A stretch of 64,000 nt of DNA, taken from assembly GCA_964477745.1 (NCBI GenBank), contig CAYZEI010000002.1, positions 5,054 through 69,053 on the forward strand, written 5' to 3'. How positions within the stretch are numbered: the stretch's first letter is position 1; each line of letters starts with the position of its first letter. The position numbers and the translations under genes are program-made. Positions 16,887 to 59,165 of the stretch are shown piece by piece. The notes beneath the pieces were generated by a model. It made no database searches and was not told the DNA's origin. It was given only the letters and a program-made list of their open reading frames with translations. The DNA is from an uncultured Candidatus Saccharibacteria bacterium (GTDB lineage: Bacteria > Patescibacteriota > Doudnabacteria > UBA920).

Positions 16887-17051
16887 TTGTTTCCTTAAAA
16901 AGTTAATTTGTACCGGTTTATTATAGCAAAATTTTCATTCCTGACAAAGGCTCTGGAAACTTTTTCTTACATATGCTAAACTAGCTCAACTGAAATTTGC
17001 CCCTGACAAACCGGGGGTGGTATCAACAAACAAGAATAAGGAGTGAAGACA

Positions 17052-17390
17052 ATGGCTACACAGGCCACTGGTCAACAGGTTATTACCGGATTCATCGTCC
17101 GGCGGTGGAAAAATGAGTTCCTCTCCCGCAAGGGAGAATGGATTGAACAGCCTCAAGGGATAGTGTGTGCATTCGTGCACCAACTTGAAGAGATTCTGAA
17201 CATCGACAGGACAATCATCAACCAGGCACAGTACATGTACTTTGGGGAGTACTCCCCAGAGACTGGCTTTGCCAAATCCAGGAGCCTGCCGTTAGCGGTC
17301 CCAAAGGAATTCAGAAATTTCCAAGATGACCTGGCAGAGGCGGTACTGGAACAAATGACGGTCAACCTCAAGGCCACACAAACGCCATAG
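17052..17390 (+). CDS. Hypothetical protein (112 aa) in GC-rich islet
   Basis: ATG with AAGGAGTG SD (the track ORF starts at GTG 17043). About 50% GC by eye. Own terminator. Confidence 0.45.
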   Translation: MATQATGQQVITGFIVRRWKNEFLSRKGEWIEQPQGIVCAFVHQLEEILNIDRTIINQAQYMYFGEYSPETGFAKSRSLPLAVPKEFRNFQDDLAEAVLEQMTVNLKATQTP

Positions 17391-17435
17391 CGTCAACCGT
17401 CATCACAACCGGCTAACCACGCCCCTGAGCCCCAG

Positions 17436-17473
17436 CCCTCCCCGCACCACACGCGGGGAGGGTACTATTTTTT
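17436..17473 (+). terminator. Terminator (ccctccccgc...gcggggaggg + T-run)
   Basis: GC-rich 10-bp stem followed by TACTATTTTTT. Confidence 0.7.
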
Positions 17474-17539
17474 AAAGACTAGACTTTTTTAAGGTTTTAT
17501 GTCAAAATATATTGAGTTTGTTACCCCACTTATCTTATT

Positions 17540-17615
17540 GCCAGCTTAGCTCATCTGGTAGAGCAACGGTTTTGTAAACCGTAGGTGGTCGGTTCAAGTC
17601 CGACAGCTGGCTCCA
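17540..17615 (+). tRNA. tRNA-Thr (anticodon TGT), CCA encoded
   Basis: Acceptor gccagct/agctggc; anticodon loop ttTGTaa; T-loop ttcaagt. Confidence 0.85.
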
Positions 17616-17757
17616 CTACTTCGTCCCGATGAATTGGGACTACGAAGTGCGGGCATTACTTTCCATGTTGGGATCAATCATGGAATAAAAAAGATTTCTT
17701 TCGCCAAAGCAATCTTTTAATTTTTCAATTTTAAATCATTAAATTTTTAAATTACCT

Positions 17758-17913
17758 ATGTCCCAAGATCATTTGATAAACCTGGAATGTACAGTTTGCC
17801 ATAACTTAAATTACCAGACCAAAAAAAACAAGAAGAATACCGCCAAGCGCTTAGAACTTCAGAAGTTCTGCAAACAGTGCAAAAAGAAAGTCATGCACAA
17901 AGAAACAAAGTAA
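17758..17913 (+). CDS. rpmG: 50S ribosomal protein L33 (51 aa)
   Basis: Translation [51 protein letters not shown]. Cys-x2-Cys pairs typical of L33. Below the ORF-track size cutoff. Confidence 0.8.
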
Positions 17914-17991
17914 TATTATAGAAGCAAGAAAATTGAGTTGTGTATTAAGTAACCCTTGATTCTCGATTCTAGATTCTTGCTTCTATTTAAT

Positions 17992-18065
17992 AGGGGTTTG
18001 GTGAAGTGGTATCACAAAGGTCTCCAAAACCTTCGTCGTGGGTCCGATTCCCACAGCCCCTGCCA
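17992..18065 (+). tRNA. tRNA-Trp (anticodon CCA)
   Basis: Acceptor aggggtt/agcccct. Anticodon stem-loop aaggt-ctCCAaa-acctt resembles E. coli tRNA-Trp. The T-loop reads tccgatt (C at position 55), which is unusual. Confidence 0.75.
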
Positions 18066-18214
18066 CGTAAAATTCACTCGTCGGACTCGCTCATCACGTG
18101 GCATGCCCAACGAATACACAACTTCTACGAACGTGATAAAAAAATAAGAATTTTACGTGATCGCGTGCGACATAGTGAATCTATGGACTTTACGCGACAC
18201 GAAAATATAAAGCC

Positions 18215-18469
18215 ATGCACTACGTCTATCTTCTCGAATGCCAAGATGACAAATCCTGGTATATCGGCCAAACAGACGACCTCAAAGCTCGAGTGAAACG
18301 CCACAACGACGGTTCTGGCGCTCGCACTACCGCCCGTAAAGAAAATTGGAATGTAATTTACTTTGAAGCCTATACTGAAAAACTAGACGCTCTCGGAAGA
18401 GAAAAGTTCCTGAAAAGCGGTTCTGGGAGAGCATATCTCAAAAAACAACTTAGGCATTATCTAAATTAG
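18215..18469 (+). CDS. GIY-YIG nuclease family protein (UPF0213-like)
   Basis: YVYLLECQD..WYIGQTDDLKARVKRHN motif. Confidence 0.75.
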   Translation: MHYVYLLECQDDKSWYIGQTDDLKARVKRHNDGSGARTTARKENWNVIYFEAYTEKLDALGREKFLKSGSGRAYLKKQLRHYLN

Positions 18470-18475
18470 CCAAAG

Positions 18476-18528
18476 AAACTTCTCTATATTTAGAGGAGTT
18501 TTTTTGTTGAGGGCTGTGGGAATTGGAC
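18476..18528 (+). repeat. Repeat R copy 1: terminator hairpin (cttctcta-tatt-tagaggag + T7) plus conserved 25-nt tail (gttgagggctgtgggaattggac)
   Basis: About 85% identical to 19353..19405. Confidence 0.55.
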
Positions 18529-18534
18529 TAAAAG

Positions 18535-19269
18535 GTGTATAATGAAATTAAAATTATATTTTTTAAAAAGTTAATTTTTTCCAAAAATATGTGGATTTTT
18601 ACTGAGGAAGAAAAAAAGATAATTTCTTCAATCGTACAAAAAGGTAGGATTGAGCAGCAAAAAAATGAAAAATTTGCCATAATGGATTTTGGTAATTTTT
18701 ACAAACTTTTTTCAGATGAAGAAATCAACCTAATTCATAAATATATTGCTATAAACCCGGAGGAATTAAATTACAGACTTCCTTATCTTGGAATGACAGA
18801 AATCCCAAATGACTTAATACCAATTTCGGGGCAAGTTTATAAAAAAATGGGTAAACATCAAACTATTCCTTGTCAATTCCTTCCTAAAAAGACATTCGAA
18901 GCGTATGAGCTACTTAATGAAGCGATTGAAAAAGACATAAACAAAAAATTATTAATATTATACGGTTACCGGTCACCGGCAAGGCAAGTTTTTATGTTTT
19001 TTGATATTTTAGAACGTATATATAGTTTTGATTTTAGTAAAACCTTGCAAAGAGTTTGTTTTCCAGCTTATAGCGAACATGTTTACCCTTTGCGGCAGGC
19101 AATTGATTTTGTTACCCCAGAAGAAGGCACTGATAACTTTGACAAAACAGTTGAATACAGCTGGTTAAAAGTGAACTCGAAAAAATACAATTTTTTTGAG
19201 TCCTACCCCAAAAACAACCAACTAGGCATGATGTTTGAGCCTTGGCATTGGCACCATGAATTTTTTTAA
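18535..19269 (+). CDS. Peptidase M15-like (VanY/D-Ala-D-Ala carboxypeptidase-like) protein
   Basis: SEH...AID and EPWHWHH motifs resemble M15B zinc-peptidase signatures. The true start may be a later ATG. Confidence 0.55.
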   Translation: MYNEIKIIFFKKLIFSKNMWIFTEEEKKIISSIVQKGRIEQQKNEKFAIMDFGNFYKLFSDEEINLIHKYIAINPEELNYRLPYLGMTEIPNDLIPISGQVYKKMGKHQTIPCQFLPKKTFEAYELLNEAIEKDINKKLLILYGYRSPARQVFMFFDILERIYSFDFSKTLQRVCFPAYSEHVYPLRQAIDFVTPEEGTDNFDKTVEYSWLKVNSKKYNFFESYPKNNQLGMMFEPWHWHHEFF

Positions 19270-19282
19270 ATTTATTTAAGAG

Positions 19283-19382
19283 CTGGGATACGAATATAAT
19301 TATTCAATCCCTGAACCACAGTTCTAACATCCTTCACCACGTCCTGCCAGAAAAACTTCTCTTACGTTAGAGGAGTTTTTTT
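19283..19382 (+). ncRNA. Candidate small RNA or 3' module A1: TATAAT (19295-19300) followed by about 75 nt of conserved core ending in the R-type terminator
   Basis: Paralogous to 19985..20086. Shared blocks gaatataattatt, agttctaa, tcct..ac, tcctgcca.aaaaa. Confidence 0.3.
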
Positions 19383-19405
19383 GATGAGGACTGTGGGGGT
19401 TGAAC
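19353..19405 (+). repeat. Repeat R copy 2 (terminator + conserved tail)
   Basis: Direct repeat of 18476..18528. Confidence 0.55.
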
Positions 19406-19412
19406 TTTTTTA

Positions 19413-19444
19413 GTCTGGACAAATCCAGGCTTTTTTGATATACT
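19413..19444 (+). promoter_or_regulatory. Hairpin with T-run overlapping a sigma70-like promoter (-35 TGGACA, 17 nt, -10 TATACT) for the 19484 ORF
   Basis: Spacing and hexamers on direct reading. Confidence 0.4.
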
Positions 19445-19483
19445 TCGATGTTACTAAAGCAATACATTTTACAAGGAGTGTTA

Positions 19484-19924
19484 ATGCAGAAGCCTTTTTT
19501 TGTTCCGCGTATTCTCGGTGACGATGAGGATTTTCCTATTAGTCCCAACGACATCGATGTCACAAACGAATTTAACTTTGTAGGAGCGTTCGACGTTCCT
19601 GATTCAGACAACGACAACCCCAACGACAGATACAACAATCAGAAAATGAACGAGGGAGCCACAATCGTTGTCAATACTTGCCAGAAGCAGGGGCATTGGG
19701 GGCCGTGCAATCCCTATGAGCTGACTGGATTCCATGAGGAAGCCACATTCTCATTGACCACCTTCCTGAAAGGAAGGCATCAGTTTAACGGTCTCGTAAT
19801 TAGGGGGGAAGACGGTCTGTGGCGTGTTACGGATAAGTTTATCATTTACTGCTATATGGCCGCTCCCAAAATCCGTACCAAACCCCGCCAGCTCCCTCCC
19901 ACCGCAAATCAAATCGAAGGCTGA
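19484..19924 (+). CDS. Hypothetical protein (146 aa) in GC-rich islet
   Basis: ATG with AAGGAGTG SD 6 nt upstream. Asp/Asn-rich N-terminal region and Cys pairs. No recognised domain. Confidence 0.45.
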   Translation: MQKPFFVPRILGDDEDFPISPNDIDVTNEFNFVGAFDVPDSDNDNPNDRYNNQKMNEGATIVVNTCQKQGHWGPCNPYELTGFHEEATFSLTTFLKGRHQFNGLVIRGEDGLWRVTDKFIIYCYMAAPKIRTKPRQLPPTANQIEG

Positions 19925-19984
19925 ACAGCGACGCCGTCTGCGTACCTCCAGGGTACAAAGACGGCGTTTCTAGTTAGTTAAATT

Positions 19985-20086
19985 AAATTTGGTATATGAA
20001 TATAATTATTTCTGTTTTAATAATAGTTCTAAGATTCCTTACAACATCCTGCCATAAAAAACCATAGCTGATGTTATGGTTTTTTA
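19985..20086 (+). ncRNA. Candidate small RNA or 3' module A2 (TATAAT 20001-20006; terminator ccatagctgatgttatgg + T6)
   Basis: Paralogue of A1. Confidence 0.3.
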
Positions 20087-20119
20087 TGTTTAGAACCCAA
20101 AGTGCTATACTCAACATAT

Positions 20120-20365
20120 ATGAAAATTCAAGTCTTAGGTTCGGGTTGCGCTACTTGCAAAAAATTGTTTGAAATCACCAAAACCGCGGTCAAGGAAATG
20201 GGAATGACTGAGGAAGTGGAATATATTACCGACTTTCAACAAATCCTCAATATGGGCCTTATGTCCAGTCCGGTTTTGGCAGTGGACGACAAACCGGCTC
20301 TGGTTGGTTTTGTGCCGAACGTAGCGGAAATTAAAAAAGCGATTTTAAAAGCAAGTACAAAATAA
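20120..20365 (+). CDS. Thioredoxin-fold 'redox-active disulfide protein 2'-like small protein
   Basis: MKIQVLGSGCATCKKL CxxC motif. Typically partnered with a DUF318-type permease. Confidence 0.6.
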   Translation: MKIQVLGSGCATCKKLFEITKTAVKEMGMTEEVEYITDFQQILNMGLMSSPVLAVDDKPALVGFVPNVAEIKKAILKASTK

Positions 20366-21333
20366 TGAATCTATTTTACCCAATCCAATTATTTTCAGAC
20401 TGGCTGGCTTTTACGGTGTTTAAACTGGCGCCCAAAAGTTTAGCAGGGGAGGCAGTGAATTTTTTTATTTTTGATTCCATAAAAATATTTATTCTGCTGG
20501 CAGTAATTATTTTTATAGTTTCTATTATCCGTTCCTACCTACCGCCGGAAAAAATTCGGAATATTCTGGCTCACAAAAACCAATACACAGGCAATGTAAT
20601 AGCTTCTTTGCTTGGTATTGTAACGCCGTTTTGTTCCTGTTCAGCCATTCCTTTATTTTTAGGCTTTGTGCAAGCCGGAGTGCCTTTGGGCACAACTTTT
20701 TCTTTTTTAATTGCCTCACCAATGATAAACGAAGTGGCCTTAGTTTTGCTACTTGGACTTTTCGGTTGGAAAATCGCCGGCCTCTATATTATTAGCGGAC
20801 TTTTTATTGCCATTATTTCCGGAATAATAATTGGAAAATTAAAAGTAGAAAGCTTGGTTGAATCTTTTGTATATCAGAACACTGTACCGGGTAATGCAAG
20901 CCTACCCACACTGACAACAAAAGAAAGAATTGTTTACGCCCGCAATTATACTTTAGAAATTTTAAAAAAAGTTTGGCCATATATTTTAGTTGGTATTGGT
21001 GTAGGTGCTTGGATACATGGTTACGTACCCACTGACTTTTTGGCCAAATATGCGGGAAACGGTAAATGGTACGGCGTGCCTTTAGCTGTCTTAATTGGCA
21101 TTCCACTTTATTCCAATGCCGCCGGGGTAATCCCATTAGTTTCCGCACTCACTGAAAAAGGAGTCAGTATGGGCACCACCTTGGCTTTTATGATGTCCGT
21201 TACCGCGCTGTCCTTACCGGAATTTATGATCCTAAAAAAAGTTATGAAAACAAAACTCCTCTTTATTTTCGCCGGAATTGTTGCTATAGGGATTACACTA
21301 ACCGGATATTTGTTTAATTTTATTTTAAAATAA
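20365..21333 (+). CDS. Permease (YraQ/DUF318-like)
   Basis: Polytopic membrane protein with a CSCS motif. Start overlaps the upstream stop. Confidence 0.65.
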   Translation: MNLFYPIQLFSDWLAFTVFKLAPKSLAGEAVNFFIFDSIKIFILLAVIIFIVSIIRSYLPPEKIRNILAHKNQYTGNVIASLLGIVTPFCSCSAIPLFLGFVQAGVPLGTTFSFLIASPMINEVALVLLLGLFGWKIAGLYIISGLFIAIISGIIIGKLKVESLVESFVYQNTVPGNASLPTLTTKERIVYARNYTLEILKKVWPYILVGIGVGAWIHGYVPTDFLAKYAGNGKWYGVPLAVLIGIPLYSNAAGVIPLVSALTEKGVSMGTTLAFMMSVTALSLPEFMILKKVMKTKLLFIFAGIVAIGITLTGYLFNFILK

Positions 21334-21378: not shown

Positions 21379-21420
21379 TGTTATTATAATTTGTTAAATC
21401 GATCCAAAGGAGGATCAAAA

Positions 21421-21819
21421 GTGCCGTTTAAAAACTGCATAGTTCACACGGATATCACACCCGAAGGCACGAAAGTGCTTCGGGTAACCGGAAGGCTCGT
21501 CTGCCAAGCCGACAGGCATGAACTCAACAAGAATGCCGATCAGCTTGCGCCGAGAAAGGGCGCTGGAGGACAAACTTACATCATTGATTTGTTGGCGGTC
21601 AAAGCGATTGCCGAGCCTGGACTCACAGCACTCAAGTTCGCAACCAACCGGTTTGTCAGCTTCGGGAACAGAGTGGCAATCTGCGCCGAGAAAAAGCTCG
21701 TAATCCCTGAATGGTATGTGATACTCCCATTCAGCGTGCCGGTGTACCACTCCTTTCAGGAAGCAGTGGACTCACTCAATACCAAAACGGAGGTCACTGA
21801 TGGACGCCGTGGGGATTGA
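21421..21819 (+). CDS. STAS-domain (anti-sigma-factor-antagonist-like) protein in GC-rich islet
   Basis: GTG start with AAAGGAGGA SD. IIDLLAVKAIAEPGLTALKFA aligns with the SpoIIAA DLSGVTFMDSSGLGVL block. The Ser position is E/A, so it is non-phosphorylatable. Confidence 0.4.
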   Translation: MPFKNCIVHTDITPEGTKVLRVTGRLVCQADRHELNKNADQLAPRKGAGGQTYIIDLLAVKAIAEPGLTALKFATNRFVSFGNRVAICAEKKLVIPEWYVILPFSVPVYHSFQEAVDSLNTKTEVTDGRRGD

Positions 21820-25649: not shown

Positions 25650-25663
25650 CAAAAAAACCCTCC

Positions 25664-30727: not shown

Positions 30728-30765
30728 ATTCTACGCGACTCTGTAATTACATAGTCGCGTAGAAT
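30728..30765. repeat. P-family 38-bp palindrome copy 1 (attctacgcgactctgtaattacaTagtcgcgtagaat, one mismatch) + T-run; probable terminator
   Basis: Homologous to 37853..37890 and 59076..59113. Confidence 0.6.
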
Positions 30766-37852: not shown

Positions 37853-37890
37853 ATTCTACGCGACTCTGTAATTACAGAGTCGCGTAGAAT
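37853..37890. repeat. P-family palindrome copy 2 (perfect 38-bp, centre TAATTA)
   Basis: attctacgcgactctgtaattacagagtcgcgtagaat. Confidence 0.6.
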
Positions 37891-38964: not shown

Positions 38965-39528
38965 TTATGTTAATTCTTTCATTACTTTTCTTAAAATTTC
39001 CGCTTCCACGCGACAGTCCACCAGAGCATCATGCAGATTAACGGGCTTTTTTACTTTGAGCATCTTAAGCATTGATTCAATGCCAAAACCCGCAAAATTC
39101 TTTACGGAACTTAAACGGTTTTTTGCCGCGAGAAAAGGATAAAATAATCCCCAAAGTTCAAAATAATGATAATCAAACTTCCATTTTATTCCGGCCCGCT
39201 TATAACTTTCCAGTAAAAACCTTTTATCGTTGTACCCGACATAAAAAGCCTGAATAACATCATGACCAAAAGTGCGGTCAAACTTTTTTAACACTTGTTT
39301 TAACTCCGGCGCTCCTTTGAGCATTTCCAAAGTAATTTTATTTACTTTCATGGAAGCCTTATCGCGAGTCTTCCAACGCCGAGGTTTTACATAAGAAGTA
39401 AAAAACTTTTTTTCTTCTAAAGTTTTTTTGTCCAACAAGACCGCGGACAGTTGTAAAATTTCGTGTTTTCCAATATCAAACCCGCTAAACTCAGTGTCTA
39501 TTAATAAGATGTCTTTTTTGAAATTCAT
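38965..39528 (-). CDS. DEDDh 3'-5' exonuclease (DnaQ/oligoribonuclease-like), paralogue B
   Basis: Exo I IDTEFSGFD. Exo III HDALVDCRVEAE. Confidence 0.7.
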   Translation of the reverse strand: MNFKKDILLIDTEFSGFDIGKHEILQLSAVLLDKKTLEEKKFFTSYVKPRRWKTRDKASMKVNKITLEMLKGAPELKQVLKKFDRTFGHDVIQAFYVGYNDKRFLLESYKRAGIKWKFDYHYFELWGLFYPFLAAKNRLSSVKNFAGFGIESMLKMLKVKKPVNLHDALVDCRVEAEILRKVMKELT

Positions 39529-39532
39529 AGAT

Positions 39533-39614
39533 TTTACGAAATACGAACCTTTACGAACTTACGAATTTTCCCGCGAGCTTTGTTCGTAAGTTCGTAGGCA
39601 TTCGTACTTCGTAA
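39533..39614. repeat. 'acgaa' palindromic element copy 1 (tttacgaa..tacgaac..ttacgaa / ttcgtaagttcgta..ttcgtacttcgtaaa)
   Basis: Homologous to 40158..40232 and 56903..56985. Confidence 0.65.
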
Positions 39615-39618
39615 AAAA

Positions 39619-40155
39619 TTATACTTCTTTAATTATTCTTCTAAATATCTCCGCGTCCAGACGAACTTTTTCCATAGCATCGTGAGGGTTTTTTTGTTTT
39701 AATTTAAAATTATCCAAAAAGGTGTTAAAAGTTGGCATCTTTTTTAAACCGTAGTTTAGAGTATAAATATACCCCAAGGTCCACAACTGAACCACGTGCT
39801 CATCGTAGTCAAATGGAACTACGGCTCTTTTAAATGAGGCTTTCAAAAATAACAACTGTTGGAAGCTGTGAGTAGAAAGAAGTAAGTCGCGCCCGAACTT
39901 TTGGTGAAATTGCTTTATACAATCGTAAATTTTTGGACTTTTGCGCAAAATTTCCGGAGTAGTATTGAGTAATTTTGCGTGTGCGTTTACCACACTGTCT
40001 AAATAGCTGACTTTAATAAAACTGTTAAAATTATTCTTTTCCAGCAAATTATCCTTATCCAGCAGTACGGCTGAAAGTTGAATGACAGAATCTTTGTCAG
40101 GATCAGGGCCAGTTGTTTGAATTTCAAAAAATAGTAGGTCTTTTATAAATCTCAT
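39619..40155 (-). CDS. DEDDh 3'-5' exonuclease, paralogue A
   Basis: FFEIQTTGPDPDKD (Exo I). HDAMEKVRLDAE (Exo III). Confidence 0.7.
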   Translation of the reverse strand: MRFIKDLLFFEIQTTGPDPDKDSVIQLSAVLLDKDNLLEKNNFNSFIKVSYLDSVVNAHAKLLNTTPEILRKSPKIYDCIKQFHQKFGRDLLLSTHSFQQLLFLKASFKRAVVPFDYDEHVVQLWTLGYIYTLNYGLKKMPTFNTFLDNFKLKQKNPHDAMEKVRLDAEIFRRIIKEV

Positions 40156-40157
40156 AT

Positions 40158-40232
40158 TTTACGAAGTACTAACCTTTACGAACTTACGAATTTACACCCG
40201 AGCTCACTTCGTAAGTTCGTATGAATTCGTAC
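40158..40232. repeat. 'acgaa' palindromic element copy 2
   Basis: As above. The central 15-20 nt differ between copies. Confidence 0.65.
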
Positions 40233-40241
40233 TTCGTAAAA

Positions 40242-56221: not shown

Positions 56222-56899
56222 CTAGAGCTTGTATTTTCCTTTTTGTTGTTCAATAGTAATTTTTCCGCCTTCAATAGTAATAACGCGCTTTTTAATTTTA
56301 TTTACTAAATCCGAGGCGTGAGTTGCTAAAATTACGGTTGTCCCCAGCTGGTTTATTTTCATTAGCAAATCTATGACTTCAGCGGCATTAACTTCGTCCA
56401 AATTTCCGGTAGGCTCGTCGGCAAGTAACAGTAATGGGCGGTGTGATAAGGCGCGGGCAATGGCTACGCGTTGTTTTTCTCCGCCGGACATTTCGTGAGG
56501 AAAACTGTCTTTTTTATGCAAAAGCCCGACTAAATCCAAAATTTTTGGCACTTCCAGCTTAATCTTATCTAACCTATGTCCACAAACTTCCATGGCAAAA
56601 GCCACGTTTTCAAACGCGGTACGTCTAGGTAGAAGTTTGATATCCTGAAAAACCATGCCGATTTTTCGGCGCAAATAAGGGAGGTCGGATTTTTTAACTT
56701 TTGTTATATCAACATCATCAATAAAAATTTTTCCGCCGTCTATCGCCTCTTCACGAATAATCAATTTCAAAAGAGTGGACTTGCCGGCGCCTGAAAGCCC
56801 CACAATCGAGACAAATTCTCCCCGATGCACCTGCAAATTAATGCCGTCTAAGGCACGTTGATGATTATATTTTTTTACAACATTTTCAAATTTGATCAT
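56222..56899 (-). CDS. ftsE: Cell division ATP-binding protein FtsE
   Basis: Walker A GLSGAGKST. ABC signature LSGGEKQR. Start set at MIKFENV. Confidence 0.9.
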   Translation of the reverse strand: MIKFENVVKKYNHQRALDGINLQVHRGEFVSIVGLSGAGKSTLLKLIIREEAIDGGKIFIDDVDITKVKKSDLPYLRRKIGMVFQDIKLLPRRTAFENVAFAMEVCGHRLDKIKLEVPKILDLVGLLHKKDSFPHEMSGGEKQRVAIARALSHRPLLLLADEPTGNLDEVNAAEVIDLLMKINQLGTTVILATHASDLVNKIKKRVITIEGGKITIEQQKGKYKL

Positions 56900-56902
56900 A
56901 AT

Positions 56903-56985
56903 CTTTACGAATACGAACATTTACGAACATACGAAATTAGCACTTGTATAAATTCGTAAGTTCGTATTAATTCGTACTTCGTAAA
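56903..56985. repeat. 'acgaa' palindromic element copy 3 (between prfB and ftsE)
   Basis: ctttacgaatacgaacatttacgaacatacgaaatt...aattcgtaagttcgtattaattcgtacttcgtaaaa. Confidence 0.65.
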
Positions 56986-57003
56986 ATCATTATACCAGAT
57001 TTT

Positions 57004-59045: not shown

Positions 59046-59165
59046 AAAAACCGCTCTGCGAGAGCGGTTTTTACTATTCTACAAGACTCTGTAATTACAG
59101 AGTCTTGTAGAATCCTTTAATAATATTCATGAGACATAAAATGCGCGGCCGCGCATTTTATGTCA
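59046..59165. repeat. Three consecutive palindromes downstream of folA: aaaaaccgctct-cgc-agagcggttttt; P-family copy 3 (59076..59113, attctacAAgactctgtaattacagagtcTTgtagaat); cataaaatgcGCGGCCGCgcattttatg
   Basis: P copy 3 differs from copies 1 and 2 by paired compensatory changes that keep perfect dyad symmetry. Confidence 0.6.

Follow-up and report, generated by a model that had tools for sequence, protein, structure and literature searches.

Two copies of a conserved non-coding unit, a candidate small RNA gene, in the variable 3' flank of a patescibacterial tRNA-Trp gene

The 64-kb stretch of DNA analysed here (contig CAYZEI010000002.1; this whole stretch is referred to as the window) carries, between positions 18476 and 20086, two kinds of duplicated intergenic sequence, which we designated A (copies A1 and A2) and R (copies R1 and R2). 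The order of features is tRNA-Trp, a GIY-YIG nuclease gene, R1, a VanY gene, A1 running into R2, a GC-rich open reading frame (ORF), A2 and a thioredoxin-like/ArsP operon. The explanation that we favour, tentatively, is that a conserved non-coding unit, most likely a small RNA (sRNA) gene, is present in two paralogous copies, A1 and A2, and that R1 and R2 are copies of a duplicated terminator. What the compared sequences show directly is the two repeat pairs, an A unit conserved across genomes, the terminator hairpins and a gene content that varies.

Two copies of A in the window

A1 (19284–19355) and A2 (19990–20061) gave a Smith-Waterman score of 32, whereas shuffled A1, scanned over the whole window, reached a maximum of 14.6 ± 1.3 (highest value 18). 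The two-copy repeat that an earlier note on this DNA had proposed is thus real. Overall identity between the copies is 75%, with one block of 36 nucleotides (nt) at 81% and another of 21 nt, around TATAAT, at 90%. A1 contains a -10-like TATAAT box (19295–19300), a hairpin GAAC-CACA-GTTC (19313–19324), the core TCTAACATCCTT and CCTGCCA (19343–19349). In A2 the corresponding parts are TATAAT (20001–20006), the core AGTTCTAAGATTCCTTAC and CCTGCCA.

A1 passes straight into R2. The hairpin and T7 of R2 directly continue the unit, in agreement with the earlier claim that A1 terminates there. The 3' end of A2 is a different, 14-bp hairpin followed by T6 (20053–20088). Z-scores of -3.9 and -4.9 mark the terminator hairpins as stable. 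No third copy of A or R was found within the window. In an Rfam search of the whole window only four tRNAs reached the gathering score, and at E ≤ 10 over positions 17400–20400 nothing overlapped A1 or A2; R1 gave a chance match to a miRNA (E = 3.9).

A units in other genomes

In relatives (fetched loci, labelled L0xx or L2xx), three further A units were detected, all on Parcubacteria-like contigs. A profile of A1 and A2 (nhmmer) found those in L029 (4108–4186, E = 2.5e-6) and L030 (104–176, E = 2e-4), and a four-sequence profile found the one in L216 (4312–4407, E = 7e-12). A covariance model of A scored all five units at 50–60 bits (E ≤ 1.4e-10) and yielded nothing else convincing; weak matches in L101 and L052 were rejected as coding-like sequence without promoter or terminator. 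A-like units were absent from approximately 80 GIY-YIG loci adjoining other tRNAs. In viral contigs the A-core pattern had 109 matches, about the number estimated by chance, and none was a full unit. Further copies, which the earlier note proposed to look for, were found for A, in three other genomes and not elsewhere in the window, and for R nowhere; likewise, conservation in relatives holds for A and fails for R.

The order of features in L216 is tRNA-Trp, GIY-YIG, a gene of 127 amino acids, A and a GC-rich secreted ORF. In L029 it is tRNA-Trp, GIY-YIG, two genes, A and an oxidoreductase. L030 has A, the spacer that precedes GIY-YIG, GIY-YIG itself and then the two genes also present in L029. 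Here the A unit occupies the exact position of the tRNA, directly 5' of the GIY-YIG spacer (…TAGTTCTAACATCATTCACTATCCCCTGCC|GCGTAAAATGAC).

The internal layout is shared by the five units. All have a -10-like TATAAT or TATACT after TGGGAT-like bases, at a fixed distance from the core, and all have the 4-bp hairpin GAAN-N4-GTTC, which RNAalifold picked unaided. The closing pair of this hairpin is C-G, U·G or U-A. The other units keep pairing only through G·U, a pattern that agrees more with an RNA helix than with a DNA site. Within TCTAACATCCTT, TCTAACATC is invariant in all five. After the core come 4–13 variable nt and then CTGCC(A), which closes every unit and matches the tRNA-Trp 3' end (CCCCTGCCA in all tRNA-Trp genes examined). 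At the 3' end four of the five (A1, A2, L029 and L216) have a hairpin with 6–7 T; L030 has the GIY-YIG spacer instead. The terminators of these four are not homologous to one another.

The body of A1 is 82% identical to that of L029 and 74% identical to that of L030, against 52% and 36%, respectively, at third codon positions of the adjacent GIY-YIG gene. This contrast indicates that the A body is under purifying selection. A1 has more in common with the L029 unit (82%) than with A2, the paralog in its own genome (75%). A small peptide gene was rejected as an identity, as neither start codon nor frame is conserved: A1 has no ATG, GTG or TTG in frame, A2 is in a different frame, and the L030 unit has an in-frame stop six codons 5' of the core. 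A is therefore not protein-coding.

L032 (approximately 1150–1210) and L031 contain a fusion of an A-like 5' part (GAATTCCGTTCTAAC) with a 3' end like that of tRNA-Asn (CCGAGCCA). An Asn-type GIY-YIG spacer begins immediately 3' of this fusion, parallel to the arrangement in L030.

The duplicated terminator R and an inverted copy of the tRNA-Trp end

The features of the locus are as follows.

17540–17615, tRNA-Thr
17758–17913, ribosomal protein L33
17992–18065, plus strand, tRNA-Trp (CCA), called by ARAGORN and as Rfam tRNA (61.3 bits)
18066–18214, plus strand, structured spacer from the tRNA-Trp 3' end to the GIY-YIG start codon, defined by comparison, with covarying hairpin
18215–18469, plus strand, stand-alone GIY-YIG nuclease, 84 amino acids, UPF0213/Slx1-like (Pfam PF01541, E = 1e-17)
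18469–18529, plus strand, R1: GCCA, A-tract, hairpin (18479–18498), T7 (18499–18505) and tail
18511–18528, minus strand, inverted 18-nt tRNA-Trp copy inside the R1 tail (17/18, p < 0.0005)
18589–19269, plus strand, VanY/M15 D-Ala-D-Ala carboxypeptidase-like gene, with R1 and R2 at its sides
19284–19355, plus strand, A1 unit
19346–19406, plus strand, R2, paralog of R1: hairpin (19356–19375), T7 (19376–19382) and tail
19412–19431, plus strand, second terminator-like hairpin with T-run
19484–19924, plus strand, GC-rich orphan ORF between A1 and A2, 146 amino acids, 48% GC
19931–19967, plus strand, GC-rich inverted repeat directly 3' of the GC-rich ORF
19990–20088, plus strand, A2 unit with its own terminator (20053–20088)
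20120–20365, Thioredoxin_3
20365–21333, ArsP

R1 and R2, 877 bp apart, form an ungapped alignment of 61 nt with 82% identity. A 29-nt degenerate pattern for R has two matches in the window, R1 and R2, with 0 expected, so that the direct repeat reported earlier around the M15 peptidase gene is real and unique in the window. Each copy is built of GCCA, an A-tract, a 7–8-bp hairpin, T7 and a tail of 24 nt. The two copies differ in the hairpin loop, and the stem is spared. Because the hairpin sits between an A-tract and a T-tract, R is predicted to be a two-way intrinsic terminator.

A profile search did not find R in any of the fetched loci. In 185,579 reference genomes its pattern had 4 matches, about the chance number, in unrelated organisms and with no likeness beyond the pattern. 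R looks like a lineage-private duplicated terminator and not like a moving module; the suggestion that it is mobile finds no counterpart in any relative or reference genome searched.

The conserved 25-nt tail of R1 noted earlier is present, but its identity had been overlooked. Positions 18511–18528 are, at 17 of 18 positions, the reverse complement of tRNA-Trp 18042–18059 (T-loop, T-stem and acceptor), and the R2 tail is a diverged version of the same inverted copy (13/18, counted by hand). Position 55 of the tRNA T-loop is nearly universally U. The T-loop of tRNA-Trp in the window (18045–18051) is TCCGATT, with C55, and the inverted copy in R1 has the same C; four related tRNA-Trp loci have a TTCGATT T-loop and no inverted copy. 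The inverted repeat 18042–18059/18511–18528 encloses the GIY-YIG unit. With this unit taken out on paper, a long imperfect palindrome results, which has the terminator loop at its centre and is made up of the tRNA-Trp 3' end, A-tract, hairpin, T-tract and tail. The inverted copy may stem from fold-back repair primed by a hairpin, from a convergent tRNA copy that was truncated, or from a module of displaced tRNA end plus native terminator that was flipped. When pairing of the tails was tested, only tRNA-Trp versus the R1 tail was significant. A clamp between the post-terminator tail and the A body was rejected (A1/R2 tail, p = 0.06; A2, L029 and L216 not significant).

The GIY-YIG family and the insertion hotspot

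The GIY-YIG protein is a minimal UPF0213/Slx1-like domain of the type with approximately 85–100 amino acids (PDB 1ZG2, E = 1.8e-10; 1YWL, E = 1.9e-6). We surveyed 83 loci with homologs that are 55–82% identical. Besides the window (18066–18469), the family is represented in L019, L020, L026–L106 and L216–L218. A same-strand tRNA detected by ARAGORN ends at most 300 nt upstream in 52 of the 83, mostly at 115–180 nt, and 11 amino-acid specificities are represented. Most of the other loci have, by eye, intron-containing tRNAs or tRNA-like 3' ends in the equivalent place. In L034, L036, L041, L072 and L100 the tRNA genes 5' of GIY-YIG were missed by ARAGORN and apparently contain sequence like a group I intron core. 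According to a recent survey most tRNA introns of Patescibacteria are without homing endonuclease genes (PMC13011429).

A structured spacer always precedes the GIY-YIG gene and is kept in relatives 3' of many different tRNAs. The spacer in the window has no Rfam match. In its first helix the last tRNA bases plus CG pair with downstream CGTGGC, and matched changes were seen here (GCCACG/CGTGGC, GCCGCG/CGCGGC and GCCCCG/CGGGGC); a later hairpin has compensatory changes at three pairs among 17 sequences. No description of a tRNA-linked GIY-YIG unit with a covarying leader was found in the literature searched, which concerned the GIY-YIG gene and tRNA introns, and this unit is the most unusual feature of the neighbourhood.

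At four loci (L038/L040, L062, L081 and L039) the GIY-YIG stop codon is immediately followed by a repeat of the tRNA 3' end in direct orientation; in L038 a hairpin with T-run comes next. A copy at this place would be the mark of insertion into the end of a tRNA gene.

The order tRNA-Thr, L33, tRNA-Trp, spacer, GIY-YIG is common to the window, L026 and L019, and tRNA-Trp, spacer and GIY-YIG are shared with L029 and L216 too. The genes 3' of GIY-YIG differ per genome: VanY in the window, a two-gene module in L029, the 127-amino-acid gene in L216 and others in L026 and L019. Because gene order in the relatives breaks directly after GIY-YIG, these comparisons support an insertion hotspot 3' of tRNA-Trp. 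The earlier note had hinted at one, and the hint gains from relatives that keep tRNA-Trp and GIY-YIG and carry other genes after them, as it does from the association of the GIY-YIG family with tRNA 3' sides.

A possible mode of action of A

From sequence comparison we deduce that A is probably transcribed and acts as an RNA, and in what order the locus was probably built. Transcription would start a few bases 3' of the -10-like TATAAT, from a promoter of the unit itself, and would stop at the intrinsic terminator, giving an RNA of approximately 75 nt. Its 5' end would form the 4-bp hairpin GAAN-N4-GUUC. An exposed, invariant, single-stranded C/U-rich stretch, UCUAACAUCCUU(U/C)AC, which contains an anti-Shine-Dalgarno-like CCUU, is the likely surface for pairing or protein binding, and through it the RNA would act in trans. 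The RNA would further carry CUGCCA, as at the end of tRNA-Trp. R2 would terminate A1, and R1, as a copy of that terminator, would terminate GIY-YIG. The array of R1, VanY, A1·R2, GC-rich ORF and A2 may have arisen by repeated single-gene insertion or duplication in the variable 3' flank of tRNA-Trp, the same site being used by the GIY-YIG unit that is tied to tRNA 3' sides. A is thus put forward as a new candidate sRNA gene, matched by no curated RNA family. Of the idea in the earlier note that the A repeats are sRNA genes, what stands is that A looks like a small independent transcription unit that is kept in relatives; its sRNA status is a prediction.

Several observations weigh against this proposal. 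The -35 region of the A units is poor, and for that reason a consensus promoter scan listed none of the A promoters. The helix is a single, weak one of 4 bp (-0.76 kcal/mol over only 5 sequences), without a two-sided pair change relative to the commonest pair. The core, elsewhere invariant, is altered in A2, a copy that may be in decay. Among 234 candidate start regions in the window no target of A scored above shuffled controls, and the same was true for the tRNA-Trp/spacer/GIY-YIG region shared by four genomes. CTGCCA and the L030 junction fit a DNA-level insertion target equally well. R, having no counterpart elsewhere, gives no sign of being more than a duplicated terminator.

A 10-bp match between the A core and the ribosome-binding site of the GC-rich ORF had been spotted by eye; it was dropped, as it was not among the best-scoring sites.

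Alternative explanations

The main rival to an sRNA gene, which we regard as possible but rather unlikely, is that A and R are att-like DNA junction repeats and that single-gene cassettes (VanY and the GC-rich ORF) entered the 3' flank of tRNA-Trp. Site-specific or homology-assisted (Campbell-type) integration would have duplicated target and terminator, and A would be conserved as a landing site or element end and not as a source of RNA. One gene lies within each repeat pair (VanY in R1/R2, the GC-rich ORF in A1/A2), as such a history would predict. CTGCCA, the tRNA-Trp 3' end, closes every A unit, and in L030 the Trp-type GIY-YIG spacer begins directly after this motif. Also consistent are the four other loci with a direct tRNA 3'-end copy after the GIY-YIG stop codon (with hairpin and T-run in L038), the cargo between tRNA-Trp/GIY-YIG and A, which varies by genome, and the flanked ORF, which is GC-rich and nearly an orphan. 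However, no integrase, recombinase or transposase is present among the Pfam-annotated called genes in approximately 10 kb on either side. The repeats are only 75–82% identical and their identity is not gathered in a core. A is most strongly conserved in TCTAACATCCTT and the -10-like box, at a distance from CTGCCA, which is unexpected for a simple target duplication, and the approximately 80 GIY-YIG loci by other tRNAs lack A-like units. The earlier suggestion that mobile 3' modules, A1 and A2, lie on either side of the GC-rich ORF could not be distinguished from plain duplication.

It is improbable, though worth stating, that A, R and the GIY-YIG unit together form one undescribed gene-insertion system of the Candidate Phyla Radiation (CPR) aimed at tRNA 3' ends. 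The minimal UPF0213 nuclease, with its structured leader paired to the 3'-terminal bases (…GCCA) of the RNA gene upstream, would insert after CCA-type ends. A, as a small RNA gene ending in the tRNA-Trp heptamer, would be a reusable second landing pad, and single-gene cassettes would accumulate between tRNA-Trp and A.

We consider it very unlikely that A is a cis-acting 5' leader (an attenuator or riboswitch-like element) that governs the downstream gene via its terminator. A promoter-like box followed by a terminator 5' of a gene is the usual layout of an attenuator, and redox genes follow A2 (the thioredoxin-like/ArsP operon) and the L029 unit (a disulfide oxidoreductase). Yet over the five units the following genes are unrelated (orphan ORF, Trx/ArsP, oxidoreductase, secreted ORF and GIY-YIG spacer), and separate promoter-like sites lie 3' of the terminators. 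The terminators are non-homologous, with no apparent alternative pairing to the conserved core; the conserved part is nearly unstructured and the core unpaired.

About as little credence, ranking just after the leader, is given to the view that all these repeats are a neutral by-product of local segmental duplication, with ordinary promoters and terminators only. In its favour, R has no homolog outside the window and R1 and R2 have diverged about as much as drift predicts. Other duplicated intergenic modules exist in the genome, such as the palindromes at 39516 and 40141 by tandem paralogous genes. A, however, is kept in three diverged genomes at 74–82% (L029, L030) versus 36–52% at synonymous sites of the adjacent gene, and its internal layout is preserved; this identity contrast contradicts a neutral reading of A.

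It is extremely unlikely that we are dealing with attC sites of the integron type, in a cassette array without integrase (CALIN). Same-strand single-gene units do lie between imperfect palindromic modules of 60–105 nt and GTTGAAC in the R2 tail fits GTTRRRY, but R1 has ATTGGAC and A2 lacks a box of this kind. On the left side, the partners GTCCGAT and ATTCAAT do not match RYYYAAC. Complementarity of A1 with the R2 tail is marginal (p = 0.06) and that of A2 with its own tail is not significant, no IntI is found among the annotated neighbours and each gene has its own promoter-like site.

Three other identities were rejected. A miniature inverted-repeat transposable element (MITE) or other repeated mobile element does not agree with two copies of each repeat in 64 kb and with chance-level matches of the R pattern in reference genomes and of the A-core pattern in viral contigs. 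A tRNA, tRNA half or tRNA-like element was dismissed for A, with no ARAGORN or Rfam match and no T-arm pairing. A LexA-type GAAC-N4-GTTC operator was discarded because the palindrome is perfect in A1 only.

Gene content and other repeats in the window

The neighbours named in the earlier note (tRNA-Trp, GIY-YIG, M15 peptidase and GC-rich ORF) agree with the gene calls. Copies of the window locus at 99.9–100% identity occurred only in contigs of the same strain, and the names on protein homologs of the locus were Parcubacteria or Patescibacteria. The nearest homologs of VanY do not exceed 66% identity and have unrelated gene neighbourhoods; four look-ups of such neighbourhoods revealed no synteny, no A and no R. 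Each downstream gene has a promoter-like site of its own 3' of the terminator. The predicted promoter of the GC-rich ORF (TGGACA-17-TATACT, 19416–19444) is overlapped by the hairpin at 19412–19431.

This ORF (19484–19924) had no family match in Pfam, NCBIfam, PHROGs or PADLOC, and its homologs formed 3 clusters only among 5.8 billion proteins. Its structure prediction, with a mean predicted local distance difference test score (pLDDT) of 36, was unusable. Together with 17043–17390 and 21391–21819 it is one of three GC-rich ORFs in this region (48–53% GC, versus approximately 39% for the genome), and the other two likewise had no match in these four databases. A GC-rich hairpin lies 3' of the first two, 17043–17390 and 19484–19924. 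The three ORFs are probably genes that were acquired recently.

Repeats of other kinds were seen elsewhere in the window. Palindromic elements of approximately 100 nt, rich in TTACGAA, are located at 39516–39616, 40141–40241 and 56886–56986. Two of these TTACGAA palindromes lie upstream of tandem paralogous DEDD-exonuclease-like genes on the minus strand (38965–39528 and 39619–40155). A 38-nt near-perfect palindrome, ATTCTACGCGACTCTGTAATTACAGAGTCGCGTAGAAT, has three intergenic copies (30728–30765, 37853–37890 and 59076–59113), and a 39-nt direct repeat is present at 25654 and 25964.

Significance

A appears to be a non-coding unit under purifying selection; it occurs in no fewer than four lineages, in each case close to tRNA-Trp or to the GIY-YIG gene that accompanies it. 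Members of the CPR (Patescibacteria) have tiny genomes with few recognisable regulators, and A offers a concrete candidate for a regulatory RNA there. The locus also shows reduced genomes taking up foreign single genes just 3' of a tRNA gene. The tRNA-linked GIY-YIG family may outweigh the repeats in importance.

Comparison with known systems

The locus resembles genomic islands at tRNA or tmRNA 3' ends with att repeats in its variable genes directly 3' of a tRNA and its flanking direct repeats. A few tRNA 3'-terminal bases recur at the distal side, and, as in such islands, the flanked genes are foreign in composition or non-syntenic. It differs in that no integrase is found among the called genes in approximately 10 kb on either side. 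Further, its repeats (61–72 nt, 75–82% identical) extend into a terminator or promoter and do not match the tRNA. The direct tRNA match is 6–7 nt only (CCTGCCA in A1 and A2), and the longer, 18-nt copy is inverted.

Integron attC sites, too, are imperfect palindromic modules between same-strand single genes, but here the core boxes do not correspond and the annotated neighbours include no integrase.

In phage T4, segB is a free-standing GIY-YIG homing endonuclease gene in a tRNA gene cluster (PMC2330249). The GIY-YIG gene described here is similarly small and adjoins tRNA genes, and because its relatives adjoin many different tRNAs, mobility of the unit is suggested. Unlike segB, it encodes a minimal UPF0213/Slx1-like domain without a DNA-binding domain, and it is always accompanied by a covarying spacer that pairs with the last tRNA bases. 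At some loci direct tRNA 3'-end copies flank the unit; homing makes none.

RoxS and FsrA of Firmicutes are trans-acting sRNAs with a C-rich seed, their own promoter and a Rho-independent terminator. Almost no regulatory RNAs, and no sRNA families, are to our knowledge known for the CPR. A differs from RoxS and FsrA in having no sequence or Rfam relation to them, in its very short, nearly unstructured body, in ending with the tRNA-Trp 3' heptamer, and in its CPR/Parcubacteria-like host. Like these trans-acting sRNAs, A is short and intergenic, with a -10-like box, a small 5' hairpin, an unpaired C/U-rich stretch with CCUU, and a terminator with U-tail, and it is kept across species, with two paralogs in one genome.

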